Virus genome (UHGV): UHGV-1367341
DNA: 54,338 nt
DNA from: a virus
Strand: one strand, 5' to 3'
Each line of letters opens with the position of its first letter. The first letter of the stretch is position 1. Below the pieces are notes generated by a model. That model ran no database searches. It saw only the letters and a program-made list of their open reading frames with translations, and had not been told where the DNA came from. This document shows positions 3,687 to 35,506 of the stretch, one piece after another. The position numbers were made by a program, and so were the translations under genes.

Positions 3687-3712
3687 TCCGTTTCGTCTTG
3701 TGGTGTCTCCTA

Positions 3713-3895: not shown

Positions 3896-3897
3896 GG

Positions 3898-17644: not shown

Positions 17645-17929
17645 TTATGCCATCTCCTCAGCGAGCTTCGTGAGGTCGTCCTCGACGGATGTGCTGTTCA
17701 CATTCGCGGTGAGGTCTACCTGGGTGCTCTGCATCTTCGGCAGGACGAAGCCCATGAGCTTAACCATGACGTCGAGGCGGTCCTTCGGTGGCAGTGCATC
17801 GAGGTCCTCCTTCATCAATCCGCTCTCTTGATACTTGTCAATCACATTAACTATAAGCTCTCGGCTTAGCTTCGTCGTCTTGTTCACTGAGCCAGGCTTT
17901 CGCCCGCCCGTCTTTCTTCCCTTTGCCAT
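17645..17929 (-). CDS. small basic DNA-binding-like protein (MAKGRKTGGRKPGSVNKTT...). Possibly TerS-like or Xis-like
   Basis: Lys/Arg-rich N-terminus followed by a helical segment is typical of small terminase and excisionase-like N-termini. Lone minus-strand gene next to attP. Confidence 0.4.
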   Translation of the reverse strand: MAKGRKTGGRKPGSVNKTTKLSRELIVNVIDKYQESGLMKEDLDALPPKDRLDVMVKLMGFVLPKMQSTQVDLTANVNSTSVEDDLTKLAEEMA

Positions 17930-18011
17930 GTTGCTTTACTCTATATGTCGTGTGCGCGCTAAGCTATCACATTATCTTGCACCACATATAACATATAGAG
18001 CAGAAACAGAT

Positions 18012-18530
18012 ATGCCATTACCAATCGCAAGCCTTGTCGGTGCAGGCATCGGAGCTATCGGGAGTATCTTCGGGGGCATCGCAGCAAGTAAAGCAGCCAA
18101 GCGCGCACGCCAGGGAGTCATGAGCAGCATGCGTGACAATCAGACCTGGTATGATCGAAGATACAATGAGGACGCCCTCCAGCGAGCCGACGCCCTCCGA
18201 ACTATGGAGCGCACCCGTGAGGCTATTGCCAAGCGTAACCAGCGTGCACAGGCAGTGCAGGCCGTCATGGGTGGCACTGAGGAGTCGGTGCAGGCGGAAC
18301 GCGAGGCGGGCAATGAGGCCCTCTCCAATGTAGCCAGCGCAATCGCAGCCGACGGAGCGAAGCGAAAGGACCTCATCGAGAGCCAGTACATCCAGCGTCG
18401 TGACGGCTTCCAGCAGCAGCTCAACCAAATCGAGAACAACCGAGCCCAGGGTATCACCCAGGCTATCGGAGGCGTAGCACAGGCAGGCGCAGGTATCGCC
18501 AGTGCCTTCGACCCACAAAGCAGTAAGTAA
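18012..18530 (+). CDS. glycine-zipper membrane-associated protein, first gene of the late operon
   Basis: MPLPIASLVGAGIGAIGSIFGGIAASKAAK (GxxxG repeats), then a helical Gln/Ala-rich region. Start taken at ATG 18012; the longer ORF from 17835 overlaps the opposite-strand gene. Confidence 0.45.
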   Translation: MPLPIASLVGAGIGAIGSIFGGIAASKAAKRARQGVMSSMRDNQTWYDRRYNEDALQRADALRTMERTREAIAKRNQRAQAVQAVMGGTEESVQAEREAGNEALSNVASAIAADGAKRKDLIESQYIQRRDGFQQQLNQIENNRAQGITQAIGGVAQAGAGIASAFDPQSSK

Positions 18531-18531
18531 T

Positions 18532-19752
18532 ATGGGAGTGCTCGACGATATTCGGAAGGGCACGGGGCGCGAGGTGTCACGCAAGGAGGACGCACCCGCC
18601 AATGTGCAGCAGGCGACCACCGCCTCTGCACCTTCACAGACACCCGCTGCCCCTACCCCTCCTGCCCCTCAGCCACAAGCCACAGCCACAGCCCCCGCGC
18701 CCAATCAGGGTGGCGGGGCTACAGCTATTAAGCGCATCCAGCAACTCGCACCTACTCCCGAGCTACCCCAGGTGCAACTCACCCAGGCGGACAAGGAGAA
18801 GGTCACACGCCCCACATCTTATGTGGAGATACTCCGACACCTCACTCCATTCACTCCTCCCACTGCCGAGGAGGTGGAGAAAGACCGACGACGCCAGCGT
18901 AGCCGTGAGGCTATCGCAGCAATAGGTGACGGGGTGCGAGCTATCAGCAACCTTGTTGCGACAGCTAACTATGCTCCCAATGCCTACAAGCCCACCGAGA
19001 CAATGCTCGGGAGTGTGCAGGACAGATACGAGAAACTGCGAGCCGCAAAAAAAGCGGATGCCGACGCCTATCTCCAAGCCTACATGAGAGCCAAGCAGCT
19101 CGACGATCATAACGACCAGGCAAGAGACGCACTGCAACTCCGACGTGAGCAGGCAGCACTCGACCACCAGCTCAAGCTCGCCAAGCAGTCGCAGGAATAT
19201 CAGAGGTGGGTGGCACAGCTCGGTGAGAAGGAAGCCGACCGCAAGCTCCGTCTACAGCTGGGTATGGCTGGCATCCAACAGCGAGCCAACGCACTCGAGG
19301 AGACCAAGCGACACAACCGCGCATCGGAAAGCGAGCAGAGACGACGCACGGGTATTATGGAGACACGTGCAGCCAATGCCGCAGGCGGTGGTGGCGGTGG
19401 CAGATCGGTATTCATCGACTTCGGTGACGACGAGGACGGGGAAGACCTGGGCGGTGTGGAGATCCCGAAGTCTGTACTGAACGATGCCAACATCGGACAG
19501 ATCTACAACCAGCTACCCGAGTCTGTACGCGCTCAGCATCGCACGAAGAGGGGCTTCGGGTCTAAGGCTACATATACCGAGCCAAAGGCAAAGGAAATGC
19601 TCAAGATCATCGGGCAGAACATCAACGACCCCAATGTGCAGAAAGCTATCACGCGATTGCAGAATGTACGGAAGAGCGAGCCTAAGCCAAAGCCAGCACC
19701 AGCACCCGCACCAGCGAAGCCAGCAGCTAAGAAGAAACTCAACTTAGAATAA
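18532..19752 (+). CDS. Pro/Ala-rich low-complexity protein (possible internal virion or scaffold-like protein)
   Basis: Long PAPTPPAPQPQ tracts, a poly-Gly run and a KPKPAPAPAPAKPAAKKK tail. Start at MGVLDD immediately after the upstream stop. Confidence 0.45.
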   Translation: MGVLDDIRKGTGREVSRKEDAPANVQQATTASAPSQTPAAPTPPAPQPQATATAPAPNQGGGATAIKRIQQLAPTPELPQVQLTQADKEKVTRPTSYVEILRHLTPFTPPTAEEVEKDRRRQRSREAIAAIGDGVRAISNLVATANYAPNAYKPTETMLGSVQDRYEKLRAAKKADADAYLQAYMRAKQLDDHNDQARDALQLRREQAALDHQLKLAKQSQEYQRWVAQLGEKEADRKLRLQLGMAGIQQRANALEETKRHNRASESEQRRRTGIMETRAANAAGGGGGGRSVFIDFGDDEDGEDLGGVEIPKSVLNDANIGQIYNQLPESVRAQHRTKRGFGSKATYTEPKAKEMLKIIGQNINDPNVQKAITRLQNVRKSEPKPKPAPAPAPAKPAAKKKLNLE

Positions 19753-19769: not shown

Positions 19770-22700
19770 ATGCCAAACGATAAGACGCAAAAGAACTTAT
19801 CGAGCCTCCACAACACGCTGGAGACCATGGGATATGAAGTACCCAACATCGACCAGTTCACAAAGTATATGCGCAAGGAGAAGAACCTGCGCACAGTGTA
19901 TGATGCAATAGCCTCTGATGGAGGGTACGAGCTTCCCGACTTCGACACCTTTAAGGCAAACATGGGGTGGATAAAGCCAACGCCAGCGGGAGTGCCTACA
20001 CCACTGAGACCAAAGGATCAGCTCGCACCAACTGGAAAGCCTGATGCGCCCGCTACTCCCTTTGGCTTTGACCTCTCCGCAAATCCCAAGAAGCCCTCGC
20101 ACGCACCTAAGGCGCGCCTGGGCTTCCCACGTCTCGACAAGAAGATGCGCCCTGTGCAGGAGGTGAACGACCCAAGTGTACCCCTGCTCAAGACCACACG
20201 AGACGTCGCACAAGATGAGAATGGCAACGTCGTAAACGTGGTACAGCCCGAGCTTGTCCCCGACTTCGACCCCAACAATGGCGGGGTGACCGCTCCCAAG
20301 GCTCTCTTGGACGTAACGACGGGTAAGACTATTCGCCCCACCGAGCTGAGCAAGGAGGAGGTAGACGGCTACAACGCTGGCAATATCGACGCGGTAAAAG
20401 ATCCCAAGCTGCGTCAGGCTTTGAAGGAGGCTAATGTCATCTACACACCTGACGTTGATATGGAGAAAGTCCACAGAGACCAGGTGCGCGACCTCGAGCA
20501 GGAAATCGATGCAGACCTAAAGACGGCTTACGATAGCTTCACAGACAAGGCAGCAGCCAAGGCGAAGGACACGCGTAACCTTATGCGCTTTGGTCTTGCC
20601 ACTGCTGGTGCGTCAATGGGTGGCGGAGCTACCACAATGGGTATGCACGCTAACCCACTTGCTGTGGAGAGCGACCCTGAGATCTACATGCTCAAGCTCG
20701 CAAAGCACAATATCCAAGACGCTAAGAACTACATCGCGGAAGCTGACCATAACGCGCAGGAGGGGACATTCTCCAAGTGGTTGGAAAGTAGCTTTGCTGG
20801 AGGTGCTGCCCGCGGCTTCGCACAAAAGCTCTTTGATACTCGCACATGGGATATGGGTATCGGTGATGCTGGTGAGGCGGCTTCTATCAAGGCTGCCGTA
20901 AACAAAGCGGACCTCGGGGAGAAGCTGACGCCAGCAGAAGATAAGCTGCTGCAATCCATGGTTACAAAGATGGCTGTCGAGGCATACTTCAATAGTCAAG
21001 TGGGTCATGGATATACAGCTGGGAGTGTGTCGGCATACTCAATCCCCTTCATGCTCGAAATGGCTGTCAATCCCGTATCTACATCGGGGAATGCTATCGG
21101 AGCAAAGCTTATGCGCTATGCTGTCCGTAAGTTCGGACTTAACGTAGCGGGAAAGGCTCTACGCAAGAAGGCCGTAAAGGCTGCCGTGAAGTATGGTATA
21201 GGAGGGCTGACGAGTGCAGCGGTATCATCCGCAGCTCTAACTGCAACGAGTGGTACTGCGCACGTGGCGGCAGACGCAACAAGCCGAAATACTGGAGAGC
21301 TGAAGTTCGACTACAAGGCAGACCCTGAAACGGGAGAATTGCGAGCTCAGTATAGCGGTCACGAAGAAGGTGACGACGCACTCACGGCAACGGGTAAGGC
21401 GTTCTTCATGCGCTTCATGGAAAACTTCAGCGAATACTCGGGCGAAGCCTTAGCACCTATCGCGGCAGGCGTTGCCAAGGGCGTCGGAGCTGGAGCAAAG
21501 GCCGCTGGTAAGGCAATCGCTTCTCACATGGGTAAGGCTGGGGCTAAGATCCTGGATGCTGGACGATGGGGGACAAAGGCCGCACGTGAGCTCATCGACA
21601 ACATCAGTGCGTCGGAGTTCGGCCGCACTATAACGGCACTCGAGAAGAAGGCGCACTATAATGGTAAGGTGCTGGAGTTCGCAGAAGAAAAGATCAGCGA
21701 CCTGGCGTCCGTGCTTATCGGGGATAAGGACCTATCCACCGACAAGGGCAAGGGCTTCTTCAACCTGGACGATAATATCGATACCTTCCTCGGGGTGTCA
21801 CTTACGGGTGGCGTGATCAGTGCCGCACAGACCGCAGGCTACTTTGCTGGCGGTGGTGCGCGTGGAATGGCCCGCTATCAGATCGGGCAGAGCGAGGGTG
21901 CAGTGTGGAGTACGCTCACCACGGATGAGCAACGCAAGGCGTGGGACGACGTGCGCAGACAGATCCTTCTCCAGGATGGTAAGGAGCAGGTAGACGCTGT
22001 GAAGTCCGCACTCACCAACCCCAACTTCAACGCAGAGCAGCGTCGCGCTATCCTCGACTACACTAAGTCGGTGCAGACCTACAAGGGTATGAGCGAGTAC
22101 CGACGCAAGCAGAGCGAGGATACCAACACAGACCCATTGCAGAACGAGCTGGCAGACTCTTACGATAAGGGCGCAGAGATGACCCAAGCCGAAGAGATGA
22201 GCCACGCACGCAGCTGGTATGAGTTCGCACAGCAGAAGGCGGCAGAGCGTCTCGGGGTAGATGCTGAGGCTCTCGATGAAATGGGAGCACCTGACCAACT
22301 CACGCTCGACCAGGTGGCACAGCTACGAGAGGAGCACAGCGAACAGGCAGTGCAGTCTTATGTGGACTACCTCAATGCACGTGCTACCTACGAGGGTATG
22401 ATCGGGAGTGTCTCCCAGGGCATACAGGCTGAGGCTGCACAAGCCGAGCAGGCAGTGCGCTCACAGCAGCACAAGGACGGAACGCTCCGTCGTGCCACTC
22501 TCCGTGGTACGGAAGGGCAGCACGTCGAAGTGCATATCAAGGATGGCGACCTTGTCATGGATGAGGAGGGCCGTATCGATACCGACAAGTCCAGTAAGGA
22601 CTTCATCGTTCGCGATAACGAGACGGGCGTCGTGCGCTTCGCCAGCATCGATGACATTATCAGTGCAGAGCAGCCCACGAGTGCCGACGACGCAGTGAGC

Positions 22701-25700
22701 GAAGCGGTCAATGCCGTCTACGAACGCAGAGAGAAGGAAGCGGCCGACGCTATCAACGGGACTATCACCCCGCAGGTAGGAGCAGTATACAATCTCCTCG
22801 ATGCTGATGGGAACCCCCAGCAGATCGCTATCCAACAGGTAGGCCAAGACGGCACACTCGACGTGGACTACTCGGGAGTGCCCCACAAGATGACTACCGA
22901 CGAACTGCAGGCCATGGCGGACAACACACGCGCCCGACAGATCGAGAATGAGCATGCAGCCCAGGTACAGCAGGCCAAGGCTGAGGAGAGAGAGGAACGC
23001 GAACAGGCAGGCCTCCCACGCTATGCACTCAATGATGAGCTGACCATTCGCACCCCCGAAGGTGAGGAGGTCACAGCCTACGTCACCAACGAGGAGGATG
23101 CCGACGGGAATATCGAGGTGTACTTTAATGAGCCCTTCGATGGGAAGAAGGTGCACCTCTTCACTAAGGACTACCTCGACGGGGTGGTAGTGGGTACACG
23201 CCTCAGCCCCGAAAGCAACGGGAACACGCAGGCCGTGGAAGCTCCAGCCACTCCAGCAGCACCAGCCTTAGCGCAGGTACAGCCCGCAGAGGAGGGAGCT
23301 ACAACAGAGGAGGAAGGGCCCGCACCAGCACCTACCCATGAGGAGGAAGTAGACGATGCGCCAGCTGACCCCAACGATGAGAGCCTCTCACCCGAGGAAG
23401 CATACGAAGCGGTGTTGCGTGCAACCAATGGTGACGTAGTCCTCGCTCTCGAAGTCATCGAGAGCACAATTGCCGACAAGGAGAAGGCACTTGCCAAGGC
23501 CAAGAAGGCCAAGCCACGAAGTGCCGACACTATCGAGGGTAAGATCCAGGCGCGCGAAGAAGTAGCTGCTGGTATCGAAGCCGCAGAGACCTCACTCGCA
23601 CATTGGCAGGCCGTCGCTGAAATCGCAGCCGAGCAGGTGCAGGAGGAAGTGGCAGAGGTAGCCGAGCCCGTCGCTGAGCAGACAGAGCAGGAGAGCGAAG
23701 AACCTACGGCCGAGCAAGAGCCCGCAGAGGAAGAGGCTGCCGAGGAGCAAGAGCCCGAGGCGGAGCAGGAGGAAGAAGCTATCCCCGCATCCGAGGACAC
23801 CGCACCTGAATGGGGTAAGGACAATCCAGCCGACGCACGCGCACGTGGGTACATTAAGGTAGAAGGCTTGCGAGTAGATCGTCAGGGGCAGCTCTCCGAC
23901 GCACTCATCGGCAAGGAGTCTGACGTGAAGTTCGCAACGAATGACACACAGCAGGCTCACTACGCTATCATCGAAGCCGAAAGCCTGCAGCCAAGCCACA
24001 TCAGAGGATACCAAAATCAGCTGCACTTTATTCCCGAGGCACAGCCAAAGGATCGAAGCGACGTTGTCAGCGAGCAGGCGGCAGTACGTATCGCAGCTAA
24101 TATCAATCCCGAGGAGATCACAACGAGTGCCACAGCTTACACGGGTGCTCCTACCATCAACGCGCGTGGCGAGGTGATCCAGGGGAATAGCCGTGCCGAC
24201 GCACTGCGTGCTGTGTGGGAGTCGTTCCGTGATACGAGCGGAGCGAAGTACAAGCAGTACCTCATCGAGAATGCAGAGGCCCTCGGTATTGACCCCGAAG
24301 CTATCGAGGGGATGAAGTCCCCCGTGCTGGTGCACCTTGCCGACGTCAGCGACGAGCGAGCCATCGAGCTGGGGCAGTACCGACAGGCCGACATCGAGAG
24401 CGGTGGCGTCGAACGTATCAACCCACAAACACTCTATGCTAAGATCGGGGAGAAGCGTGATACCTTCATTCGCTTCCTACTGGGGACAAGCGACGACGAC
24501 CTCAGCCTTGCCGAGTCCATCACACGCAATGCGGCTGAGACACTGAGCTGGCTCAACCGCCAGGGCTTTATCTCTGACACGCAATTCCGTAGTGCCTTCG
24601 GTGCTAAGGGTGAGATCACGGCAGAAGCTAAGGAGGACCTCCGTAATGCTTTGTACCGCTCCTTCTTCGAGGGCGCGCACAACAGCCTGGAGGCAGAGTT
24701 CTACAACCTGCCCAAGCGCACCCAGCAGGCACTACTCCGCGTCTCATATCGCGACCAGCAGAGCCCAGCAGATGCGCACTTCCTCGATGAACTTCAAGCA
24801 TCGGTAAGTGCATACAACGCCCTCATGGGGTACACTCCATTCGCTGAGGCTAAGACCTTCGAGGATGCAGAGCGTGCTATCGAAACGTGGATGCGCTTCT
24901 CGGGTGACCTCATTACGGGTGAGGTGAACTCCGAGCAGTATAGTAACTTTGCTGTACAGCTCGCACTCCGCTATAAGTTCCTAACGCAGAAGGAGCTTAT
25001 CTCAAAGCTCAATGCGGTGTACGACGCAGTGCAGGCCGTCTCCGAGGACACCCTCTTCGGAGAAGGCGAGGTAAATCCTAAGACGCTTGCCGAGGCGGTG
25101 AGCGAAGTGTTCAGCATAAATATCGACAACAATACAGAAGAAGATGGAAGTACTGGAAGCAGCTCTCCTGGCAGCGACCTTGAAGGGAGCAATGGCGGGG
25201 AACAAGAAGGACAAGGAACACCTGGCGGCAATGAACAAGATCAGAGCCGAGCAGGGACGCCCGAGCGTAGAGGAAGAGCTGCAAGCGATCCTCAAGAAGG
25301 GGAAGGAGTAACCACCGAAGCAGAAGAAGTAGCCCCCGAAGCGGGGGACACCCAGGCGAGTGATGCGACTGGGGAGGGCTATCGTTTGTCTGCTATTGCG
25401 GCTAAGCGAGGAGGAAACTTCTTTGAGAATAGTGAGGGAAGTATCGACTTAGTCAAGATCTCGGACAATGTGTTTGAAGCTATTGGTATCAAGCCATTGC
25501 CAATGAGAATGACCGAGGCGATGGCTCAGCATATCATTAAGCAACATGCAAAGGAGCTGGGTATATCAACGCAAGAGGAGGCAGTCGCCTTTGTTGTTGG
25601 TATCATGCAGCACTTCGACCACGTACGAGAAGGGAACAAACCCAACACCTACATCTTCTCCATAGAGAAGGGTCGTAGCCGTACGGGAAAGAGAGCGGTT

Positions 25701-28700
25701 ACATTAGTCTTGCCGTCTAAGAGTGGGGAATATCTTGGTGTGTCTTCCTCGGGGTACGAGAAGGTAAGCAGATTAAAAGAAAGAGCGTTGCTTTGGGAGG
25801 AGGGCGCGAATAATATGGCTCCTACTACAGAGACCGCCTCTGCAAATGTTCCCACCCCATCAGCCACACAAGGCGGAATGACTGGGGGCAGCGCATCAAA
25901 CCAAAGCAATGCCCTTTCGCAAGGCAAAGATAGCAAAAAGGATACAGCTGAGGGAGAAGCGAATGATGGCAATCAAGATGATCTTTCAATTGAAGAGAAG
26001 GAAGCTCTGCTATCCAAGGCTAAGCAAGAGCTTGAAGAGAAGGAGGCAGAGCGCACAGCCGTAGCGGAGCAGGCTATTGCTCTCATGAAGGACTACTACG
26101 ACAGCGGTGCAATCCCCGGCATGGATAGTGGCGAGTTTCATGGGCAGGCTACCCTTATCCTCATCGGCTTCAAAGACCGAAGTAATCTTGAGCTGATGAA
26201 AGCCCCTGGGCTTAGTGAGCTTCTACCCAGCCTGTATAAGCTGGCAGACGAGGCGAGAGAGAAGAAGATGCTGGTCCGAAAGTATGAGAAGGAGCTCAGC
26301 CAAGCAACGGAAGAAGAGGGCGAAACGTCCACCTATAACGATGCTATCCGAGATGAGCTTGTCAATACGATGCGAGATGCAGGTATCGAGGTCGTCACGG
26401 ACGAAGCTGAAGGTCAGGCGGTGCTTGATGCAGCGCGCGCTGGTGAGGCACAAATGCAACGAGCCTACCATGGGACGGATGCTGACTTTGAAGCCTTTGA
26501 CCATAGTCACATGGGAGAGGGCGCAGGTGGTCAAGCATACGGCTGGGGCTCTTACTTCACCGAGGAGGAGGGCGTCGCTCGGTCCTATGCAGGTGGTGGC
26601 TTCGTATATGAGGCAGAGCTGCCCGATGATACGGGAAGCAACTACCTGCATTTTGAGAGCAAGCCAAGCAATAAGGACATCGCCCGTGTAAAGAGGGAGC
26701 TTGTGGAATACATCCTTCGCAATGACGAAGAGGGTATGTACGACTATCCTCAAGGCAAGGACGACTTGACGCAGGAGGTGGATGACGCAGGAGAGCCTAC
26801 TACATGGAGAGACCTTTATGGTACGGTATCTTCGCACCTTGGCTCAGATAAGGAGGCCAGCGCATTCTTCCACTCCATCGGGTATGTTGGTATCCAATAT
26901 AACTCTTCTGAGACCGATGGGGGAAAGAAGAACCTCGTCATCTTCGATGAGAGCGACATCGCCATACAATCAAAGGTGCGCCTATTCAAGACCAGCAGCG
27001 GAGAGGCGTACGGCTTTGTCAAGGATGGGAAGATCTACCTCGACCTCAAACACGCAACGGCCGAGACGGCTATCCACGAGTACACGCACCTATGGGCGAG
27101 TGCCCTACGTCGAGTAAACCCTCGTGCGTGGAAGTCTATACGGAAGCAACTCAAGGGCTTCGAACTGTGGGCGAACATCGAAAGTAGATACCCCGAACTC
27201 AAGGGTGATGAAGATGCCTTAGCAGATGAGGTGCTTGCTCAGTACTCGGGCAAGCGCGGTGCTCAACGCATTGAGGAGGAGATGCAGAAGGAGGATAATG
27301 CTACGGACCTTGTAGGAAAGGCGCGTGTGCTCGCAGCGTTCAATAGCCTCAAGGAAGCACTCAAAACCTTTTGGACTGAGGTCGCAGACTTCTTCGGGAT
27401 GGACTATTATAAGTCCGTGGAAGACGCAGCTGACAAGGCTATGAGCGACCTTCTGCGTGGGGTAAATCCTAATGCAGTAGAAGCAAAAAAGAAGGAGGCT
27501 ACGAAGAAGAAGCCCACGAAGAAGTCAACCGCGAAGAAGGAGATAGCTACGTCAAGTGTCATCGCCCCCGACAGCGAACGATACAATGGGTATATCGTGG
27601 CTCTCCCCAAGTCTGGGAAGGCTGGCGCAGAAGTCGGTAACATAGAGGAGTTCGTAGCAGCAGATGGAATGCGAGAGGGGCTGACGGTTATCTACCAAGC
27701 CCCCGAAGGGTTTGCCGTGGCCAGCAACGGCACTATGGCCATTGCAGACAAAACGCAGTTCGACGTGTACAAGAAGGGGAAGGCGTACAAGCTGGACGGG
27801 ACAACGATTGATGCTGGGGCATGGAAGCCCCTCAAAGATAAGTGGCAGTCATTCGTCTCTACGGAAACGAGAGGTGATAACTCCGACCCATTCACAGAGT
27901 CCCCCGTCAAGATACCCCGACTATCCAAGTATTTAGATCAAGTAGAGCAAGACCTCTACAACAGATGGAAGGCTGACAAGAGCGGAGGGCGTACAAGGGA
28001 TAGCTTCAAGGCGTATCGTAGTCGTGCATTGGTGTCTATCCCCAATGGGCGAGGAGAATACGTTAGTTATCCATATACAGATCTGAGAACCATAGCCTTG
28101 GCCGCAAAGCGATTAGGCGTTACATCCTTCTTCGTGGAAGGGGATCTACACTTTGGCTCTTCCGAACAGCCTGGCCGTCGTCTTGTCGGCAATGGTAGAC
28201 TCGGATCTGTGGTACACGCGGGCTATTTTGAAACAAGAGACCATAATGCATCCAAGAGGAAAGAACTCTCCTATCTGTATGATGAGTCTGTTGGAGTCAA
28301 GGATATAGACGAAGGGGTACGCATGCAGAAGGAGCTCGAGGAGAAGGACGCGAAGTACGCAGAGATGGACGCCCAGGTGAGCGCAGCCAACAACGTGAGC
28401 AATGCGGAGGAGGATACCGAAGAAGCTAATGACGAGGAGGTGCGCTACCGCTCCGACGAGTTAGACGAAGTTAGTAATCGGTTCAATGCGGAGCTTGCTC
28501 AGCTCACAGAAGAGAATTCAGATAGCACTATCTTCTCCCTTGGCATGCCTTCTTCCGAACTTATCGCAGGCGGAGTAGCTCCTAAACTTATGCGTCTATA
28601 TGGGAACAAGGTGATCAAGAAGATGAAGAAGCATGGATTTGCTTTGTCTGACCTTCTGGATCTGCCGAAAGCTGTTGCACAGCCTATTGCAGTGTTCTCA

Positions 28701-31700
28701 ACACATAGGGATGGGAGTCACGCAATTCTTACAGAACTCAAGACAGATGAAGGGAACATACTGGTTACTCTTGAAGTAGGTAAGGGTGGTGCCGATGTAG
28801 ACTTTAATCTACTTACATCTACTTACGGCAAGAGTCACGGCAAGGTTGTTCAATGGCTTAATTCAGGTAAGGCGACCTATATAAATAAAGAAAAAGCCCT
28901 TGAGTATCTTGCCAGCGCTCCCGCTCCAATTGCGGGTGCTAAACAAGCTCAAGAGCTTTCTCTTGCCACAAAGGTAGTAGAAACTTTTGACAACCCACCC
29001 CTTGCGAGCGAAGATCTCGGGATCGGCAATGATAATCAAGCGGCCGAGGATAACGACGATGAGGTACGCTTCCGCAGCAGCCGCCTATCCCCTGAGCTTC
29101 AAGCTATCAAGGATCAGGCAAAGGCGGATGGGAGCTTCATGAAAGCCCCCAATGGGAGACCCACCAACCTTACAGAGAAGCAATGGCTACAAGTCCGTAC
29201 GCCTGAGTTCAAGGAGTGGTTCGGAGACTGGGAGAACGACCCAACAAATGCGTCTAAGGTAGTAGATGAGAACGGGGAGCCGATGGTGGTGTATCATGGG
29301 ACGAGCGTCAGTAGTAGACGTTTCTTCAAATTTAAGGACGGAGCCCCTAATTGGTTTACGCCATCGGAGTATTATGCAAAGGCTTTCACATTCGATGAAG
29401 ATATCCCTGTCATGTATCCCTCGTTTATCAAGATCAAGAAGCTCATGCACTTAGGGTACATTGATGGCGATGTGATATCAGGAAAGATCAGGTCGCTATC
29501 TCTTGATACGGGGATAAGTGAGAGTAGCATCAGATACATAGTGTCGAAAGAAAGAGCAGATAAGGTCTATCAAATAACCAATTCACCACTCTTCAAAAGA
29601 GAGGCTATGGCTCTTGGTTATGACGGGATGATGGCATTTGAAGCTGGCGTCGACTCTTTCGCGATCTTCTCACCCTCCCAGGTCAAGAGTGCCACAGAGA
29701 ATGTTGGCTCGTTTGACGGGATGAATGATGATATCCGATACAGCTCATACGATGCAGCCGAGCGAGAGGACCTCGACATGCAGGATCTCGACGAGGTGGC
29801 CAACAGCGCAGCAGAAGCCCTCGGGGAAAGCGTCCGCGTCATTCACGACACGTCAGAGATTGAAGGCCGCAGTGAAAGCGAGACGAACAGAATGCGCGGT
29901 GCTAAGGGTTGGTATGATCCTAAGACGGGGCAGGTGGTAGTGGTGCTACCTAATGCGGAGAGCGCAGACGACGTCGAAGCTACTATCCTCCATGAGGTCG
30001 TAGGGCACAAGGGCTTGCAGGAGCTTGTCGGTAAGGACCAGTTCGGCAAGTTCCTTGACGAGGTGTTCGAAGGTGCTAACGAAGCCGTGCGAAATGGTAT
30101 TGTCGAGCGAAGCAAGAGATACGGGTGGAACACCCGCCTTGCCACCGAGGAGTATATCGCAGAGCTTGCTGAGCAGGGCTTCAAGGATCTCGAAGCACGC
30201 GACCTGTGGAACGTTGTACGCAACGCCTTCTACAACCTTCTCAGCCGAGTGAAGCTCGCGCTGGGCTGGGACGTCAGCGACCGCGAACTCCGCTATATGC
30301 TTTGGCGCACGTATCAGATGAAGAAGGGCGAGGGCCTTATGGGGCAGGCTAAGGATATAGCTATGCAGGAGAAGCTGGGCGTAGGTAACTACGAAGAGGC
30401 CCGCTTCCGTCAGGGTGAGTCAGCCGCCCCCGTAAAGGTAGCCGCCACCTATGATGCGCTTATCAAGAAGTCGAGCTATCAGACACAGGAGGCTCTCCAA
30501 GATAGCATGCTCTCGCTCAAGAAGGTCATGGAAATGATCATGCAGGCCAAGGGTGATGCTAAGTACATCGAGGAGATCGAGGGCTATCAAAATGCCTACA
30601 TGGGAGAGAACAGAGTGTCGAGCGTAAACCAAGCTGAGGCCGCTGCATATAGCCGTATGGCACTCGAGCCCCTGGTGGAAGAGGTAAGCCGTCTTGCCAA
30701 GAAGGCTCACCACTCATACGTCACGGACTACATGATGGCTAAGCACGGGCTTGAGCGTAACCGCGTGATGGCTTTCCAAAAGGCCGTAGAGGCTGACGTC
30801 GATGCGCACAACAAGGCCGTCAAGGAAAGTGGCGAGGGCGAGGAGCTCACGGCAAGCAGTCTGTGGGATGCGTACCTCAATGATACGGATCGCCTGAGAA
30901 ACGAAGCCGACTACCGCGAAGGGCGTATTACGGCTGACGTATGGCACAAGACCGACGACGAGATCCGTGCACGCTACGCACCGAGCTATGCTGAGTACCG
31001 CGAGCGAGACTATGCTGGTCTTACGGGCTTGCTTGATCGTCCCGACGTAGATATTCAGACGCTCGAAGAGGAGGCTATCGAAGAGGTCATGAAGTTCGAG
31101 AATGAGAACGACGTCACCGACCTATGGGAGCTCACGAACAAGGCTACCGACGCACCGCTTGCAAAGCAGTACGAAGGAGGGCTTATGAGCAGAGAGACGC
31201 TGGAACACGTACGCAACATGTACGGGTACTACATCCCACTGCGAGGCTTCGATGAGACGACCAGCGACGAAGCATATAGCTACCTCGGTGACCGAGACCG
31301 CGCCTTCTCTCCCACGCTGAAGAAAGCTAAGGGACGTAGCAGCAAGGCAGAGGACCCGCTCGCACACATCGCAAGTATGATGGAGTCGGCTATCTTGCAG
31401 AGCAACCGCAATAAGCTGGTGCGTCAGAAGTTCCTAAACTTCGTAGAGAACAACCCCAGCGACCTGTTCAGCGTGCAGAAGCTATGGGTGCAGTGGAACA
31501 ACACAACTAAGACCTGGGATGCCGTGCTCCCTGAGTTCGACCCCAACGACACGAGCGAGGAGGTGATCCGTAAGACGCAAGAGTTCGAGGAGGCGATGCG
31601 CAAAAGCCAACGTGAAAACCCCGAGCTCTTCAAGCTGGCAAGCGAGCAGCCCTCTATCCCCTATCGCGTCGTCGGTCAGGATAAGAAGATGCAGCACCAA

Positions 31701-33524
31701 ATCATTGTCAAGCGTGGAGGCCGTGACGTTGTGATCATCGTCAATGGCGACCCACGTGTGGCAATGGCGGTCAATGGGCTGACTAATCCTGATTCAGACG
31801 CTAATGGTCACGTAGGTGCTTTCTTCAAGTGGACAGCAGCCGTGAATAGAAAGCTCGCAGGCTTCTATACGTCGCTCAGCCCGAACTTCGTGGTGAAGAA
31901 CTTCATCCGAGATATTATATACGCTAACACTATTGCGTGGGTCAAGGAGTCACCCACCTACGCAATGACCTACCACGCCAACGTAGCCAAGCTCGCAGGG
32001 CAGATGCACAGGCTTGTCCACCTCTATGAGCACGACAAGCTGGATATGTCCAACGAGACGCACCGCGCGTTTAAGCTCTTCATGGAGAATGGAGGTGAGA
32101 CGGGCTACTCGCAGCTCCGTAGCATGGACCTCCATAAGAAGGAGATCGAGCGTATGATGAAGGAGTCAGGGGGGCGTATTAGCCTCAAGCAGGGCTTCCG
32201 ATTGCTCGGAGACACTATGGAGTTTGCCAACCGAGGCATCGAAGACCTATCTCGCTTCGCTGCGTTCCTGACGAGTAGACAGATGGGCCGCACTATCGAC
32301 CGCTCTATCTACGACGCAAAGGAGATGACCGTGAACTTCAACAAGAAGGGAGCGGGCTCTACCTTCTCTAAAGCGCATACGCAGACGAAGGCTGGTAAGG
32401 CTTCAGCGTACCTTTCGGGATTTGGCCGTAGCTTCTACCTCTTCTGGAACGTATCTATCCAGGGGTCTGTGAACATCGCCCGTGCTGTGAAGAGAAACCC
32501 TAAGAAGGGTGCGGCATATCTCGCCACCTTCCTCGCTCTCGGTATTCTTCAGACGATGCTACCAGCACTCACTGGTGGTGACGATGATGACAGATACTGG
32601 AACTTACCCGACTATGTAAGGCGTAATAATATCTGTTTCTTTGTAGGAGACGTGCTTGTGAAGATCCCTCTACCGCAGGAAGCCCGCGCTATCTTCGGCA
32701 TAGGTGAGCTGGGGATGAGTTACATGTCAGGGAAGGAAGATAAAGATGCTTGGATGGTAGCCTACACCATGGCTGGGCAGCTGTCTCAGATAATGCCACT
32801 TGACCTAATGGACGACTCGGGTCCGATCCACGCACTTATGCCAAGCCTTGCTAAACCCGCCTTCGAGGCATATACCAACCACAGCTGGATGGGGCGCCCT
32901 ATTTGGAAGGATACCGACTACAATAAGGCTATGCCCGCCTGGACCAAGGCTTATAAGTCTACGGGCGGTGTTTACGTATGGCTGGCTAAGGAGCTGAACG
33001 CACTCACGGGTGGTGACGACTACAAACAGGGATGGGTAAACATCAACCCTGCGAGGATTGAGTACCTATTCAAGGGTTACCTCGGTGGGCTCTACACAGC
33101 GGCCGATCAGATAATCAAGTCCAGCGAGACCGCCTTCGGTGATCGTGAGTTCTCGATGCGTGACGTGCCTATCCTCTCGGGCTTCCTCGACGGGGCTGAC
33201 GAACGCAACGATATGCGCAATGTCAATAACACGTACTACCACTTCAAGGAAGAAGCTAAGGAGGTCCTGCGCCTGGGTAAGTCCTACGAGAGTGATCTCG
33301 AGCAAGGAAAGAGTGACTCCACGGACTACGCTAAGAAGCTCGACGAGCTGGTGAACACCAAATCGTATGAGCGTGCGCTGCTCTTCGAGGATCTCAGTAA
33401 GGAGATCGAGGAGATGCAGAAGGCCCTGAAGGAGGCTACCGATCCCAAGGAGGCAGAGGAGCTACAGGCAGAGATTGACAAACAGAAGAAGGCACTGGTG
33501 ATCCAGCTGCGCCAAATGAAATAA
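19770..33524 (+). CDS. giant 4,584-aa polyvalent-type cargo protein (ADP-ribosyltransferase-like and metallopeptidase modules, ParB-like region, acidic linkers)
   Basis: Single uninterrupted 13.7-kb ORF. Contains two YHGT(S/D) motifs, two HExxH motifs, a ParB-like GEVIQGNSRADALRA motif and long Glu/Ala/Pro low-complexity linkers. Every antisense ORF in the span is low-complexity. Confidence 0.85.
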   Translation: MPNDKTQKNLSSLHNTLETMGYEVPNIDQFTKYMRKEKNLRTVYDAIASDGGYELPDFDTFKANMGWIKPTPAGVPTPLRPKDQLAPTGKPDAPATPFGFDLSANPKKPSHAPKARLGFPRLDKKMRPVQEVNDPSVPLLKTTRDVAQDENGNVVNVVQPELVPDFDPNNGGVTAPKALLDVTTGKTIRPTELSKEEVDGYNAGNIDAVKDPKLRQALKEANVIYTPDVDMEKVHRDQVRDLEQEIDADLKTAYDSFTDKAAAKAKDTRNLMRFGLATAGASMGGGATTMGMHANPLAVESDPEIYMLKLAKHNIQDAKNYIAEADHNAQEGTFSKWLESSFAGGAARGFAQKLFDTRTWDMGIGDAGEAASIKAAVNKADLGEKLTPAEDKLLQSMVTKMAVEAYFNSQVGHGYTAGSVSAYSIPFMLEMAVNPVSTSGNAIGAKLMRYAVRKFGLNVAGKALRKKAVKAAVKYGIGGLTSAAVSSAALTATSGTAHVAADATSRNTGELKFDYKADPETGELRAQYSGHEEGDDALTATGKAFFMRFMENFSEYSGEALAPIAAGVAKGVGAGAKAAGKAIASHMGKAGAKILDAGRWGTKAARELIDNISASEFGRTITALEKKAHYNGKVLEFAEEKISDLASVLIGDKDLSTDKGKGFFNLDDNIDTFLGVSLTGGVISAAQTAGYFAGGGARGMARYQIGQSEGAVWSTLTTDEQRKAWDDVRRQILLQDGKEQVDAVKSALTNPNFNAEQRRAILDYTKSVQTYKGMSEYRRKQSEDTNTDPLQNELADSYDKGAEMTQAEEMSHARSWYEFAQQKAAERLGVDAEALDEMGAPDQLTLDQVAQLREEHSEQAVQSYVDYLNARATYEGMIGSVSQGIQAEAAQAEQAVRSQQHKDGTLRRATLRGTEGQHVEVHIKDGDLVMDEEGRIDTDKSSKDFIVRDNETGVVRFASIDDIISAEQPTSADDAVSEAVNAVYERREKEAADAINGTITPQVGAVYNLLDADGNPQQIAIQQVGQDGTLDVDYSGVPHKMTTDELQAMADNTRARQIENEHAAQVQQAKAEEREEREQAGLPRYALNDELTIRTPEGEEVTAYVTNEEDADGNIEVYFNEPFDGKKVHLFTKDYLDGVVVGTRLSPESNGNTQAVEAPATPAAPALAQVQPAEEGATTEEEGPAPAPTHEEEVDDAPADPNDESLSPEEAYEAVLRATNGDVVLALEVIESTIADKEKALAKAKKAKPRSADTIEGKIQAREEVAAGIEAAETSLAHWQAVAEIAAEQVQEEVAEVAEPVAEQTEQESEEPTAEQEPAEEEAAEEQEPEAEQEEEAIPASEDTAPEWGKDNPADARARGYIKVEGLRVDRQGQLSDALIGKESDVKFATNDTQQAHYAIIEAESLQPSHIRGYQNQLHFIPEAQPKDRSDVVSEQAAVRIAANINPEEITTSATAYTGAPTINARGEVIQGNSRADALRAVWESFRDTSGAKYKQYLIENAEALGIDPEAIEGMKSPVLVHLADVSDERAIELGQYRQADIESGGVERINPQTLYAKIGEKRDTFIRFLLGTSDDDLSLAESITRNAAETLSWLNRQGFISDTQFRSAFGAKGEITAEAKEDLRNALYRSFFEGAHNSLEAEFYNLPKRTQQALLRVSYRDQQSPADAHFLDELQASVSAYNALMGYTPFAEAKTFEDAERAIETWMRFSGDLITGEVNSEQYSNFAVQLALRYKFLTQKELISKLNAVYDAVQAVSEDTLFGEGEVNPKTLAEAVSEVFSINIDNNTEEDGSTGSSSPGSDLEGSNGGEQEGQGTPGGNEQDQSRAGTPERRGRAASDPQEGEGVTTEAEEVAPEAGDTQASDATGEGYRLSAIAAKRGGNFFENSEGSIDLVKISDNVFEAIGIKPLPMRMTEAMAQHIIKQHAKELGISTQEEAVAFVVGIMQHFDHVREGNKPNTYIFSIEKGRSRTGKRAVTLVLPSKSGEYLGVSSSGYEKVSRLKERALLWEEGANNMAPTTETASANVPTPSATQGGMTGGSASNQSNALSQGKDSKKDTAEGEANDGNQDDLSIEEKEALLSKAKQELEEKEAERTAVAEQAIALMKDYYDSGAIPGMDSGEFHGQATLILIGFKDRSNLELMKAPGLSELLPSLYKLADEAREKKMLVRKYEKELSQATEEEGETSTYNDAIRDELVNTMRDAGIEVVTDEAEGQAVLDAARAGEAQMQRAYHGTDADFEAFDHSHMGEGAGGQAYGWGSYFTEEEGVARSYAGGGFVYEAELPDDTGSNYLHFESKPSNKDIARVKRELVEYILRNDEEGMYDYPQGKDDLTQEVDDAGEPTTWRDLYGTVSSHLGSDKEASAFFHSIGYVGIQYNSSETDGGKKNLVIFDESDIAIQSKVRLFKTSSGEAYGFVKDGKIYLDLKHATAETAIHEYTHLWASALRRVNPRAWKSIRKQLKGFELWANIESRYPELKGDEDALADEVLAQYSGKRGAQRIEEEMQKEDNATDLVGKARVLAAFNSLKEALKTFWTEVADFFGMDYYKSVEDAADKAMSDLLRGVNPNAVEAKKKEATKKKPTKKSTAKKEIATSSVIAPDSERYNGYIVALPKSGKAGAEVGNIEEFVAADGMREGLTVIYQAPEGFAVASNGTMAIADKTQFDVYKKGKAYKLDGTTIDAGAWKPLKDKWQSFVSTETRGDNSDPFTESPVKIPRLSKYLDQVEQDLYNRWKADKSGGRTRDSFKAYRSRALVSIPNGRGEYVSYPYTDLRTIALAAKRLGVTSFFVEGDLHFGSSEQPGRRLVGNGRLGSVVHAGYFETRDHNASKRKELSYLYDESVGVKDIDEGVRMQKELEEKDAKYAEMDAQVSAANNVSNAEEDTEEANDEEVRYRSDELDEVSNRFNAELAQLTEENSDSTIFSLGMPSSELIAGGVAPKLMRLYGNKVIKKMKKHGFALSDLLDLPKAVAQPIAVFSTHRDGSHAILTELKTDEGNILVTLEVGKGGADVDFNLLTSTYGKSHGKVVQWLNSGKATYINKEKALEYLASAPAPIAGAKQAQELSLATKVVETFDNPPLASEDLGIGNDNQAAEDNDDEVRFRSSRLSPELQAIKDQAKADGSFMKAPNGRPTNLTEKQWLQVRTPEFKEWFGDWENDPTNASKVVDENGEPMVVYHGTSVSSRRFFKFKDGAPNWFTPSEYYAKAFTFDEDIPVMYPSFIKIKKLMHLGYIDGDVISGKIRSLSLDTGISESSIRYIVSKERADKVYQITNSPLFKREAMALGYDGMMAFEAGVDSFAIFSPSQVKSATENVGSFDGMNDDIRYSSYDAAEREDLDMQDLDEVANSAAEALGESVRVIHDTSEIEGRSESETNRMRGAKGWYDPKTGQVVVVLPNAESADDVEATILHEVVGHKGLQELVGKDQFGKFLDEVFEGANEAVRNGIVERSKRYGWNTRLATEEYIAELAEQGFKDLEARDLWNVVRNAFYNLLSRVKLALGWDVSDRELRYMLWRTYQMKKGEGLMGQAKDIAMQEKLGVGNYEEARFRQGESAAPVKVAATYDALIKKSSYQTQEALQDSMLSLKKVMEMIMQAKGDAKYIEEIEGYQNAYMGENRVSSVNQAEAAAYSRMALEPLVEEVSRLAKKAHHSYVTDYMMAKHGLERNRVMAFQKAVEADVDAHNKAVKESGEGEELTASSLWDAYLNDTDRLRNEADYREGRITADVWHKTDDEIRARYAPSYAEYRERDYAGLTGLLDRPDVDIQTLEEEAIEEVMKFENENDVTDLWELTNKATDAPLAKQYEGGLMSRETLEHVRNMYGYYIPLRGFDETTSDEAYSYLGDRDRAFSPTLKKAKGRSSKAEDPLAHIASMMESAILQSNRNKLVRQKFLNFVENNPSDLFSVQKLWVQWNNTTKTWDAVLPEFDPNDTSEEVIRKTQEFEEAMRKSQRENPELFKLASEQPSIPYRVVGQDKKMQHQIIVKRGGRDVVIIVNGDPRVAMAVNGLTNPDSDANGHVGAFFKWTAAVNRKLAGFYTSLSPNFVVKNFIRDIIYANTIAWVKESPTYAMTYHANVAKLAGQMHRLVHLYEHDKLDMSNETHRAFKLFMENGGETGYSQLRSMDLHKKEIERMMKESGGRISLKQGFRLLGDTMEFANRGIEDLSRFAAFLTSRQMGRTIDRSIYDAKEMTVNFNKKGAGSTFSKAHTQTKAGKASAYLSGFGRSFYLFWNVSIQGSVNIARAVKRNPKKGAAYLATFLALGILQTMLPALTGGDDDDRYWNLPDYVRRNNICFFVGDVLVKIPLPQEARAIFGIGELGMSYMSGKEDKDAWMVAYTMAGQLSQIMPLDLMDDSGPIHALMPSLAKPAFEAYTNHSWMGRPIWKDTDYNKAMPAWTKAYKSTGGVYVWLAKELNALTGGDDYKQGWVNINPARIEYLFKGYLGGLYTAADQIIKSSETAFGDREFSMRDVPILSGFLDGADERNDMRNVNNTYYHFKEEAKEVLRLGKSYESDLEQGKSDSTDYAKKLDELVNTKSYERALLFEDLSKEIEEMQKALKEATDPKEAEELQAEIDKQKKALVIQLRQMK
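23950..24450 (+). other. ParB/Srx-like nuclease-type domain inside the giant protein
   Basis: GEVIQGNSRADALRAVWE (nt 24168..24221) resembles ParB box II (G-x-x-R-x-x-A). Preceded by a box-I-like IPEAQPKDRS. Confidence 0.35.
26457..26760 (+). other. ART-like domain 1 (AYHGTDADFEAF ... GWGSYFTEEEG ... VYEAEL)
   Basis: H-G-T NAD-binding-type motif at nt 26469..26477, downstream aromatic S/T-Y-F motif and acidic residue. Pattern of H-Y-E-class ADP-ribosyltransferases (ART-PolyVal-like). Confidence 0.4.
27060..27095 (+). other. zincin HExxH motif 1 (TAIHEYTHLW)
   Basis: HEYTH at nt 27075..27089, about 200 aa downstream of ART-like domain 1. Confidence 0.45.
29283..29580 (+). other. ART-like domain 2 (VVYHGTSVSSRRFF ... 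NWFTPSEYYAKAF)
   Basis: Second H-G-T motif at nt 29295..29303 with similar downstream pattern. Internal duplication of domain 1. Confidence 0.4.
29976..30020 (+). other. zincin HExxGH motif 2 (ILHEVVGHKG)
   Basis: HEVVGH at nt 29991..30008, about 230 aa downstream of ART-like domain 2. Confidence 0.45.
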
Positions 33525-33535: not shown

Positions 33536-35506
33536 ATGAATACCTACACTAAGAAGCTACGTCGGCTGAGCCAGGTTGGCGGGCAAAAGAAGATTGACTC
33601 CGTTGGATCTACCAAGCACCACGGGGAGTACAACCGAGCTATGGGCGTACTCCTCGAGGCGCGTCGTAGCTGGGACGCCATGTCACGTTTCCGAAAGGAT
33701 CGCGAGCGGTGCAAGCGGTACACCTACGGGGATCAGTGGAAGGATGTCGTCAATGTGGACGGCAAGACGATGACCGAGGAGAAGTATATCATGGAGCAAG
33801 GTAGCGTCCCATTGAAGAACAACCTCATCCGTCGCCTTGTGCGTAACGTCCTCGGTGCATACCTCAAGCAGACGAAAGAGCCTGTATGCGTGGCGCGAGA
33901 CAGAGACGAGCAGCGACTCGGAGAGACGATGAGCACGATCCTCCAGTACAATATGCAGCTCAATAGTATGACCGAGATAGGAGCGCGCTCTATGGAGGAG
34001 TTCGTCATCAGCGGGCTAACGGTCCAGCATAAGAGCTACGGGGTGCGTGAGGGTCGCCTGGACTGCTGGACACGTAATGTCAATCCGAGCATGTTCTTCT
34101 TGGACTCCAATTCACAGGACGTGCGCGGATGGGACGTAAGCATCCTCGGTGAGATCCATGATATTGACTTACAAACGCTCTTCCGAGAGTTTGCCAGCAG
34201 CCGCGAGGAGTGCGAACGCCTGCGTGAGATCTACCGCTATGCACGCGACGGGGATTACGTGAGTCAATACTTTTCGGATTTCCCTGACTTCGGGTATAGT
34301 GATGCGCGTACTTACGACTTCTTCACAGGTCGCGATCCCCGTCGCTGTCGTGTCATCGAGGTATGGCGCAAGGAGACGAAGGAGCGATACTTGTGCCACG
34401 ACCCTAACAACGGGGAGGTATACAAGATCGAGACGGAGGACTACGGGAAGATGGTAGAGGCTGTGAATAGAGACCGCATGGTAATGGCCGCTGAGCAGGG
34501 GATCCCCGAGGAGGATGTGCCACTAATCGAGGCGACGTGGTTTGTAGACGATTATTGGTACTTCTACTACCTCAGTCCCTTCGGTCATATCCTAAAGGAG
34601 GGAGAGACCCCATACCACCACAAGAGCCACCCCTATGTCTTCAAGGCCTACCCCTTCATTGATGGGGAGATCCACTCCTTCGTCTCCGACGTCATCGACC
34701 AGCAGCGATATACGAACCGCCTCATAACGCTATACGACTGGGTAATGCGCTCAAGCGCGAAGGGGGTGCTTCTTGTCCCCGAGGATAGCATACCTACCAA
34801 TACGACTCCCGAGGAATTTGCGGAAGAGTGGAGTCGCTTCAACGGGGTAATCGCCTTTACCCCCAACAAGCAGGGGGTACTACCTCAGCAGATCTCGAGC
34901 AACGCCACGAATATCGGCATCGGGGAGCTACTGAATATCCAGCTCAAGCTCTTCGAAGATGTGTCAGGGGTACATGGTGCATTGCAGGGTAAGCCAGGCT
35001 TTGCGGGGATGAGCTCCAGCCTATACGCTCAGCAGACGCAGAACGCGACGAACTCGCTGGTGGATCTCATGGATAGCTTTAGCGCGTTCACGATCCAGGG
35101 GGCGTATAAGGATGTGAAGAACATTCAGCAGTTCTACGATGAGAAGCGCGTGGTGAATATCGCGGGCAATGACTCGAGTCTACTCCCCGACGATCCCCGC
35201 AAGATCCGTGATATTGAGTTCGACCTCTCTATTGCTGAGAGCTCCTCGAGCCCTGCATATCGACAGCTCGCTAATGAGTTCCTCCTCGAGGTATGGAAGG
35301 CTGGTCAGATCACGCTCAACCAGCTATTGGAGGTGGGCGACTTCCCATTTGCGGACAAGCTCTTACAGAGTCTCGACTCGCAAGCTGAGCAGATGAAGCA
35401 GGGCATAGCCCCCGAAGGGATAAGCCCCGAAATGCAGCAGCAGGCTATGGCTATGGCTGATCCAGCTGCCGTAGAAATGGCTCACCGAGCCCTCACGGCA
35501 AACTAA
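33536..35506 (+). CDS. putative portal protein (656 aa)
   Basis: Size, position between the cargo megaprotein and the terminase, and alpha/beta-rich composition. No motif-level confirmation possible by eye. Confidence 0.4.
   Translation: MNTYTKKLRRLSQVGGQKKIDSVGSTKHHGEYNRAMGVLLEARRSWDAMSRFRKDRERCKRYTYGDQWKDVVNVDGKTMTEEKYIMEQGSVPLKNNLIRRLVRNVLGAYLKQTKEPVCVARDRDEQRLGETMSTILQYNMQLNSMTEIGARSMEEFVISGLTVQHKSYGVREGRLDCWTRNVNPSMFFLDSNSQDVRGWDVSILGEIHDIDLQTLFREFASSREECERLREIYRYARDGDYVSQYFSDFPDFGYSDARTYDFFTGRDPRRCRVIEVWRKETKERYLCHDPNNGEVYKIETEDYGKMVEAVNRDRMVMAAEQGIPEEDVPLIEATWFVDDYWYFYYLSPFGHILKEGETPYHHKSHPYVFKAYPFIDGEIHSFVSDVIDQQRYTNRLITLYDWVMRSSAKGVLLVPEDSIPTNTTPEEFAEEWSRFNGVIAFTPNKQGVLPQQISSNATNIGIGELLNIQLKLFEDVSGVHGALQGKPGFAGMSSSLYAQQTQNATNSLVDLMDSFSAFTIQGAYKDVKNIQQFYDEKRVVNIAGNDSSLLPDDPRKIRDIEFDLSIAESSSSPAYRQLANEFLLEVWKAGQITLNQLLEVGDFPFADKLLQSLDSQAEQMKQGIAPEGISPEMQQQAMAMADPAAVEMAHRALTAN

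Follow-up and report, generated by a model that had tools for sequence, protein, structure and literature searches.

The window analysed here, 54,338 nucleotides of the virus genome UHGV-1367341, contains a giant gene (19770..33524, + strand) that starts with ATG and runs for 4,584 amino acids (aa) without an internal stop. This gene is likely to encode a polyvalent ejection protein of around 500 kDa belonging to a temperate short-tailed phage of Bacteroidales. The protein has three parts, in such a way that a conserved N-terminal module (N-module) and a conserved C-terminal module (C-module) bracket a variable array of effectors that acidic linkers hold together. This central array can be exchanged: related phages carry in its place either a set of ADP-ribosyltransferase (ART) and MuF_C domains, as in the window, or a DarB-type set with a methyltransferase and an SNF2 helicase. 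A previous sequence-only reading of this DNA had taken the product for a DarB-like protein of polyvalent type, packaged in the head and injected. The polyvalent class is upheld by six Pfam domain matches, and homologs of the C-module are found in virions, whereas the likeness to DarB had to be given up, as detailed below.

For the domain content, Pfam was run with its curated cut-offs both on the complete protein and on a set of ten tiles that overlap. All the features of the giant gene given here lie on the + strand. LPD14 (PF18827) was found at aa 551-691 (21420..21842) with 38.2 bits for a cutoff of 27. It was followed by a DdrB-type ParB/Srx domain at aa 1392-1522 (23943..24335; PF18763, 87-92 bits, also matched by phrog_5143 and phrog_2299), which is a predicted nuclease/NTPase and lies in a block (aa 1345-1791) with 46% identity to the proteins gp55 and gp3 of the Bacteroides phages BKO1-TP3 and BS-TP4. 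Two ART-PolyVal domains (PF18760) were detected, the first at aa 2231-2393 (26460..26948; YHGT at 2233; 32.5 bits in the tile scan, cutoff 31.2) and the second at aa 3166-3315 (29265..29714; YHGT at 3175; 59 bits), the latter with 638 homologs that are mostly annotated as PF18760. MuF_C (PF18819, 54-57 bits) lies between them at aa 2950-3043 (28617..28898), and LPD38 (PF18857, 141 bits) close to the end at aa 4273-4469 (32586..33176). Every one of these matches is above threshold. The Pfam matches for ddrB-ParB and ART-PolyVal therefore confirm the ParB/Srx-like region and the two YHGT-type ART-like domains that had been proposed from the letters of the sequence. The assignment to ART-PolyVal combines scores above the gathering threshold with an ART fold; the His of YHGT is kept in both domains, and the other catalytic positions could not be reliably assigned from the alignment. 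The polypeptide thus brings together at least two unrelated effector domains (ParB-type, two ART and MuF_C) and carries the marker families of polyvalent proteins (PF18827, PF18763, PF18760 twice, PF18819 and PF18857).

The linkers rich in Glu, Ala and Pro were defined by a content of these residues above 50% per 60-aa window. The first occupies aa 1141-1220 (23190..23429) and the second aa 1261-1370 (23550..23879), where the content reaches 72%, and both coincide with the nucleotide ranges that the sequence-only reading had indicated. By eye, a stretch at aa ~1905-2010 (25482..25799) parallels aa 2950-3043, with a helix carrying H..K.H and then three strands; it is a possible second MuF_C/PBECR-like unit, and no Pfam match was found for it.

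Two further regions are likely metallopeptidase candidates, as judged from their motifs. The first, M1 (aa ~2405-2545; 26982..27404), holds the sole HExxH of the giant protein (HEYTH, aa 2436-2440). Its G, G, H-E-Y-x-H, W and downstream E2487 are invariant in 14 homologs, and three strands precede the motif helix in the predicted model. The second, M2 (aa ~3375-3530; 29892..30359), holds HEVVGH at aa 3408-3413, which is an HExxxH motif 233 aa past the second YHGT. Its H-E-x-x-x-H, E3461 and E3468 are invariant. M2 precedes the C-module in 40 homologs without the second ART, and for this reason it is assigned to the conserved C-terminal block and not to that ART as a partner. Thus, of the HExxH zincin motifs that had been placed after each ART, the first is as described, and the second is of a different type and belongs to another part of the protein. 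Neither M1 nor M2 matched MPTase-PolyVal in Pfam, nor a zincin fold in the fold search. Sub-threshold matches to SprT-like proteins appeared in two of the 14 members of M1 (best E 0.008), and weak matches to DUF6782, a putative metallopeptidase, in two of nine for M2 (best E 0.03), whereas the M1 profile recovered only spurious S100-B matches among sequences of the Protein Data Bank (PDB). An HEXXXH clade of polyvalent metallopeptidases is described in section 8 of PMC5512222.

The internal duplication that had been proposed for the two ART-plus-motif units was rejected at the level of sequence. Self-BLASTP showed no internal repeat, the two units gave E>1 against each other, and a profile-profile comparison of M1 and M2 (hhalign) gave E values of 0.03-0.05 with a probability of 1-2%, so that the likeness is limited to the motif itself.

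The two ends of the protein, about 1,400 N-terminal and 950 C-terminal residues in which no motif had been recognised, turned out to be conserved modules of a family. A 5.8-billion-protein database was queried with sub-regions of the giant protein. The N-module (aa 1-1140; 19770..23189) is rich in Gly and Ala and confined to the Bacteroidales lineage. When it was used as the query of an exhaustive HMMER search, 629 clusters were recovered at E<=1e-3, 276 of them at E<=1e-30, and the matches are nearly always N-terminal in proteins of 2,500-6,927 aa. Its profile matches BKO1-TP3 gp55 and BS-TP4 gp3, and no match was found to the Burkholderia phage JC1, the Ralstonia phage GP4 or the Stx phage phi24B, all of them phages of proteobacteria. 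Most proteins with this beginning also have the same end, since the C-module closes 97 of 119 N-module proteins of at least 2,500 aa, at a median of 4 residues from the terminus. Over aa 153-1229 (20226-23456), the N-module of the window is 67-68% identical to that of the related loci L001 and L012 and 94% to that of L002, and outside this stretch the identity to each of these loci is 87-97%. This contrast suggests, from the sequence comparison, that there are recombination breakpoints inside the giant gene.

The C-terminal block (aa ~3340-4584; 29787..33521) is common to all relatives and is covered by phrog_14770 from aa 3338 to 4575 (E 8e-267). It is 41% identical to BS-TP4 gp3 and BKO1-TP3 gp55, and its aa ~3780-4500 are 23-26% identical to the ends of JC1 gp69, GP4 gp68 and phi24B gp47/48, with blastp E values of 2e-42, 2e-37 and 6e-32, respectively. 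This end of ~700 aa also resembles many proteins of Vibrio phages, and tblastn recovered 355 phage records. The AF2 model of the C-module is mostly helical, with a pLDDT (predicted confidence score) of 72. The only strongly hydrophobic helix of the protein, resembling a transmembrane (TM) segment, is found here at aa 4249-4267 (32514..32570; Kyte-Doolittle mean 1.63 over 19 aa); it corresponds to helix 545-568 of the model and directly precedes LPD38. The C-module was also seen at 40-47% identity in metagenome-assembled genomes (MAGs) labelled Bacillota, Staphylococcus and Lachnospiraceae (L023, L027, L073, L088 and others), occurrences that probably reflect binning contamination rather than the true host range.

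The exchange of the centre was observed among phages that are 91-99% identical in the flanking blocks, where two alleles are found. Type A, with the order ART1-M1-X-MuF_C-ART2, is carried by the window and by L001, L002, L003, L007 and L012, and L002 lacks the ParB region. In type B, carried by L005, L006, L008, L009 and L010, around 2,200 aa replace aa ~2066-3090 of the window protein (25965-29040). The type-B insert contains a methylase-like part and an SNF2 helicase and is homologous to P1 DarB (E 2e-8); 96-99% of its length aligns at 26-30% identity with the methylase-helicase part of the 'DarB-like' proteins of Bcep22, a Ralstonia phage and PEp14. By contrast, the window allele showed no methyltransferase or helicase match in Pfam, and the type-B cassette does not align to the window protein. 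Because the DarB-homologous cassette is present only in the sister alleles, the window protein is not DarB-like by homology, and the name given to it by the sequence-only reading applies to its sisters instead. Nor is the combination of domains without a match, as had been thought: the architecture recurs in L001, L012, L003 and L007, and nearly so in the homolog P0276, and the family of giant proteins has hundreds of members, in a lineage found widely among Bacteroidales.

Two kinds of data bear indirectly on the packaging of the protein. The first comes from homologs of the C-module. JC1 gp69 was identified by 51 unique peptides in CsCl-purified virions, being the second-best scoring protein (PMC9144972), and phi24B gp47 is abundant in virions and invisible in the cryo-EM map, and was proposed as an encapsidated ejection protein (bioRxiv 10.64898/2026.04.10.717836). 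The second is composition. Of the 4,584 residues of the giant protein one is Cys, whereas the Cys content of the remaining 41 open reading frames (ORFs) of the window is 1.16% (P=3e-22). Counts are similarly low in its homologs (0/4515 in JC1, 0/3224 in GP4, 2/2807 in phi24B, 4/5391 in BS-TP4 and 8/5553 in BKO1-TP3), with a median of 0.15% in 119 giant representatives and 0.21% over the 251,536 residues of 80 prophage copies. T7 gp15 (0/747) and gp16 (0/1318), the classical examples of ejected core proteins, are free of Cys, as is the product of the gene directly upstream of the giant gene in the window, BS-TP4, phi24B, GP4 and JC1. A chain without Cys would be expected for a protein that threads a narrow channel and crosses the periplasm, and the near absence of Cys would be explained because the giant protein would leave through the tail channel largely unfolded. 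Scarcity of Cys may mark ejected proteins in general; in the searched passages of PMC5512222 and of a 2022 review on ejection proteins, cysteine is not mentioned.

From these homologs and this composition we infer packaging in the window phage, as well as the route, the processing and the targets, according to the following scheme. During assembly the giant protein would enter the procapsid close to the portal, accompanied by the Cys-free protein or proteins encoded upstream, and at infection it would be ejected through the tail channel, largely unfolded, ahead of the DNA or with it. Packaging, ejection and crossing of the membrane or envelope would probably depend on the C-module, joined in Bacteroidales by the N-module. 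Cleavage of the polyprotein into its working parts may be due to M1 and M2, and the central enzymes would act in the host within the first minutes. There, the two ARTs, of the H-Y-E type, would ADP-ribosylate host targets, and the DdrB-type ParB would serve as a nuclease under NTP control, and both activities would blunt defences or take over the host.

Several points weigh against this proposal. The link to proteins verified by proteomics amounts to ~24% identity over ~700 aa, all of it within the C-module. Foldseek of the C-module model against the PDB returned nothing at E<=1e-3, ejectosome proteins included, so that the ejection or conduit role lacks fold support. The first ART-PolyVal is just 1.3 bits over the Pfam cut-off, and the catalytic competence of both ARTs is suggested by the alignment as far as the conserved His. 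Pfam and the fold search left the metallopeptidase assignment unconfirmed. The targets and the anti-defence role are proposed by analogy with the precedents set by T4 Alt and P1 Dar and on the basis of Iyer et al. 2017.

A different emphasis would make the giant protein mainly a structural ejectosome conduit across the periplasm, with its enzymatic domains serving envelope penetration. This is what the authors of the phi24B work proposed for gp47, and several features of the window protein agree with it: the C-module is the only part kept across phyla, the TM-like helix sits beside LPD38, the composition is as free of Cys as that of T7 gp15 and gp16, and a Cys-free companion gene and a weakly gp14-like gene lie upstream. 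However, Pfam detected no domain of a lysozyme, transglycosylase or peptidoglycan peptidase in the whole protein or in its tiles, and ART, ParB and MuF_C act on cytoplasmic targets in known systems. In addition, one hydrophobic helix is all that 4,584 aa contain, and the C-module has no fold match to the ejection proteins of T7, A4 or DEV. We regard a mainly structural role as rather unlikely, and it is compatible with, not exclusive of, the delivery of effectors by a polyvalent ejection protein.

Much less probable is that the giant protein is a toxin or superinfection-exclusion factor, which the prophage would express in the lysogen and which would not be packaged. Toxins do contain ART and ParB-type nuclease domains, and the gene is close to the lysogeny module with its integrase and repressor. 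It is, however, contiguous and co-oriented with the portal and structural genes, no secretion or immunity partner was seen, its homologs are virion proteins, and the bias against Cys fits ejected proteins. We consider it highly improbable that the protein is a virion RNA polymerase (vRNAP) of the N4 type or another starter of transcription or replication. Its size and virion-associated position do resemble those of the N4/DEV vRNAP (PMC5512222), but neither an RNA polymerase nor a primase or other polymerase family was seen with Pfam, PHROGs or NCBIfam, a phmmer query of PDB sequences with the complete protein gave no match, and the phage, which has a CI-like repressor and an integrase, is temperate. 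The vRNAP candidate was rejected, no T7-like single-subunit RNA polymerase domain having been found in these searches.

The integrity of the frame was examined in independent assemblies. The giant ORF spans 4,584 open codons, whereas the longest stop-free run in 200 shuffles was 249 codons, and the other two frames over 19770..33524 hold 159 and 292 stops. The ATG start is backed by the homologs P0275 (98% identity) and P0276 (74%), which align from residue 1 to residue 1. The C-terminal third was found in 14 IMG/VR contigs at 91-99% identity, and the frame is open, up to the limit of the DNA examined, in all 11 IMG/VR loci that are long enough. A profile scan with one genome per species gave 165 relatives of the C-terminal block. 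Eighty of these loci were inspected with a flank of 10 kb, and in 76 of them, including the cultured Phocaeicola massiliensis DSM 17679, Bacteroides congonensis and Prevotella sp. MGM2, the frame stays open to the end of the flank (at least 4,170 aa). Isolates BKO1-TP3 and BS-TP4 have versions of 5,553 and 5,391 aa, and the ratio of non-synonymous to synonymous substitution (dN/dS) in the C-terminal block is 0.13-0.16. The uninterrupted ORF of the sequence-only reading is therefore sound, and its concern about a hidden frameshift is answered by these assemblies, which argue strongly against one. That several genes were fused through a missed frameshift or stop, an artefact for which the extreme length of the ORF and an abrupt junction at aa 2005 in the relative L003 are the sole arguments, is effectively excluded.

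At that junction in L003, 550 nt of unrelated, AT-rich and non-coding-looking DNA (L003:1-550) are joined to the giant ORF, so that this contig is either chimeric or a copy that has been truncated. Three other searches did not reveal relatives: megablast of the giant gene against 50,697 phage records gave no match, an NCBIfam scan of the protein gave only noise, and a single-sequence pattern scan of the genome contigs found no relatives, in contrast to the profile-based scan.

The gene context places the giant gene in the morphogenesis module, directly before a P22-like portal gene (33536..35506, + strand; PF16510, E 1e-43), which agrees with the position among virion genes noted previously. 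Beyond the portal come TerL, which is encoded on the other strand, then the major capsid protein and genes for tail fibres, and the lysogeny module lies upstream, with an integrase (15832-17187) and a CI-like repressor (13475-14203). This arrangement, with portal, TerL, capsid and tail genes downstream and integrase and repressor upstream, is that of the late or virion genes for polyvalent proteins. Immediately upstream, a 416-aa Cys-free protein (18502..19752, + strand) is a homolog of BS-TP4 gp2 (E 4e-22) and is a probable companion ejection or virion protein. Its position matches those of JC1 gp68, GP4 gp69 and phi24B vb_24B_47, all Cys-free, of which JC1 gp68 was found in the virion by proteomics. 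The preceding 231-aa protein (17835..18530, + strand), with one Cys, matches the T7 gp14 family (PF24072) with E 0.0048 and 17.3 bits, below the cutoff of 27, and this match is taken as a lead only. Both genes and the giant gene may form a three-gene ejection cassette. The ORFs at 17835-18530 and 18502-19752 overlap by 29 nt as listed.

The window is a complete genome or prophage of a temperate phage of podovirus type. Its left arm encodes RecT, an SMC-like ATPase, an MBL-fold nuclease and a C5 cytosine DNA methylase (2637-3791, - strand; Pfam E 2e-39); this methylase, in the early or recombination arm, would be a second and independent anti-restriction device. A 940-aa tail-protein-like ORF occupies 42163-44985, and its counterpart in BS-TP4, the large gene gp14, is reported in PMC12694917 to be targeted by a diversity-generating retroelement. 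Among proteins with a named source, the nearest belong to Porphyromonas sp. (93% identity), and others to Prevotella, Paraprevotella, Alistipes and Bacteroidaceae MAGs. The host is a member of Bacteroidales from the mouth or gut, probably an oral Porphyromonas.

These observations admit a wider proposal, possible and yet a little less probable than its opposite in our judgement: the N- and C-modules may be a general delivery chassis of Bacteroidales podophages, in which effector cassettes are swapped within one population, with or without ParB, and the avoidance of Cys may be a hard requirement of passage through the tail. If so, the injected anti-defence repertoire would be a polymorphism at the population level, and the locus would be a natural, engineerable platform for protein injection into gut and oral Bacteroidales. 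Giant polyvalent genes fill about a quarter of such phage genomes, and to our knowledge there is almost no experimental work on them in Bacteroidales, the dominant order of the human gut and mouth. The present example supplies a clean domain map, with conserved ends and an exchangeable effector centre, and the near absence of Cys is a simple compositional marker that could help to recognise ejected proteins in metagenomic phages.

We compared the window protein with known systems, among them the T7 ejection proteins gp14, gp15 and gp16. These are encapsidated and ejected through a short tail, and gp15 and gp16 share the lack of Cys. The window protein is 3.5 times larger than gp16, lacks its N-terminal lytic transglycosylase and any gp16 homology, and showed no sequence or fold similarity to the T7 proteins in phmmer against the PDB or in Foldseek of the C-module, in such a way that the resemblance is confined to the absence of Cys. 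With P1 DarB the likeness is one of concept, that of a large head-packaged protein injected to protect the incoming DNA, whereas the N6-adenine methyltransferase and SF2/SNF2 helicase core of that family are absent from the window allele, which has no sequence similarity to DarB.

Also compared were the giant LPD38-ending virion proteins of phages of the 933W/Bcep22/GP4 type, such as phi24B gp47 (2,811 aa), JC1 gp69 (4,515 aa), Bcep22 gp75 and GP4 gp68 (3,224 aa), whose C-terminal module of ~700 aa is homologous to the one that ends the window protein. Those phages are also temperate and short-tailed, with related portals and a Cys-free companion gene directly upstream, and their proteins share the giant size and the Cys-free composition, with presence in the virion shown for JC1 and phi24B. 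They differ in their effectors (the Bcep22 group has lytic transglycosylase, methylase and helicase, and phi24B has LPD5 and LPD1) and in the place of the gene, which ends the structural module before the lysis genes instead of adjoining the portal.

Further counterparts are those of the temperate Bacteroides phages BKO1-TP3 (gp55, 5,553 aa, annotated as 'DarB-like antirestriction') and BS-TP4 (gp3, 5,391 aa), which have the accessions PQ571269 and PQ571277. They share the N-module, at ~25-28% identity by BLAST and in full length by profile, the order of giant gene and then portal, and a homologous gene upstream. Their centre carries an InPase and an SNF2 helicase/DarB-type cassette, whereas that of the window has two ARTs with MuF_C. 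The passages on these phages searched in PMC12694917 (Gut Microbes 2025) mention neither DarB nor polyvalent proteins.

The giant protein belongs to the class of polyvalent proteins already described by Iyer, Burroughs, Anand, de Souza and Aravind (2017, J Bacteriol, PMC5512222), and no new kind of system is involved. In that work, such proteins likewise bring many unrelated enzymatic domains into one giant chain, the families ART-PolyVal, ddrB-ParB, MuF_C, LPD14 and LPD38 found here have their source, metallopeptidase-like units with HEXXH or HEXXXH are interspersed among other domains as are the candidates M1 and M2 in the window protein, and LPD38 and DdrB-ParB are listed as domains of phage-type proteins only. 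M1 and M2 of the window differ in falling below the Pfam MPTase-PolyVal model, and the tripartite layout and the avoidance of Cys are absent from the passages of that work that were searched. What seems under-described, within this known class, is the layout of conserved ends and a variable centre, the polymorphism between ART and DarB cassettes within one population, and the avoidance of cysteine.

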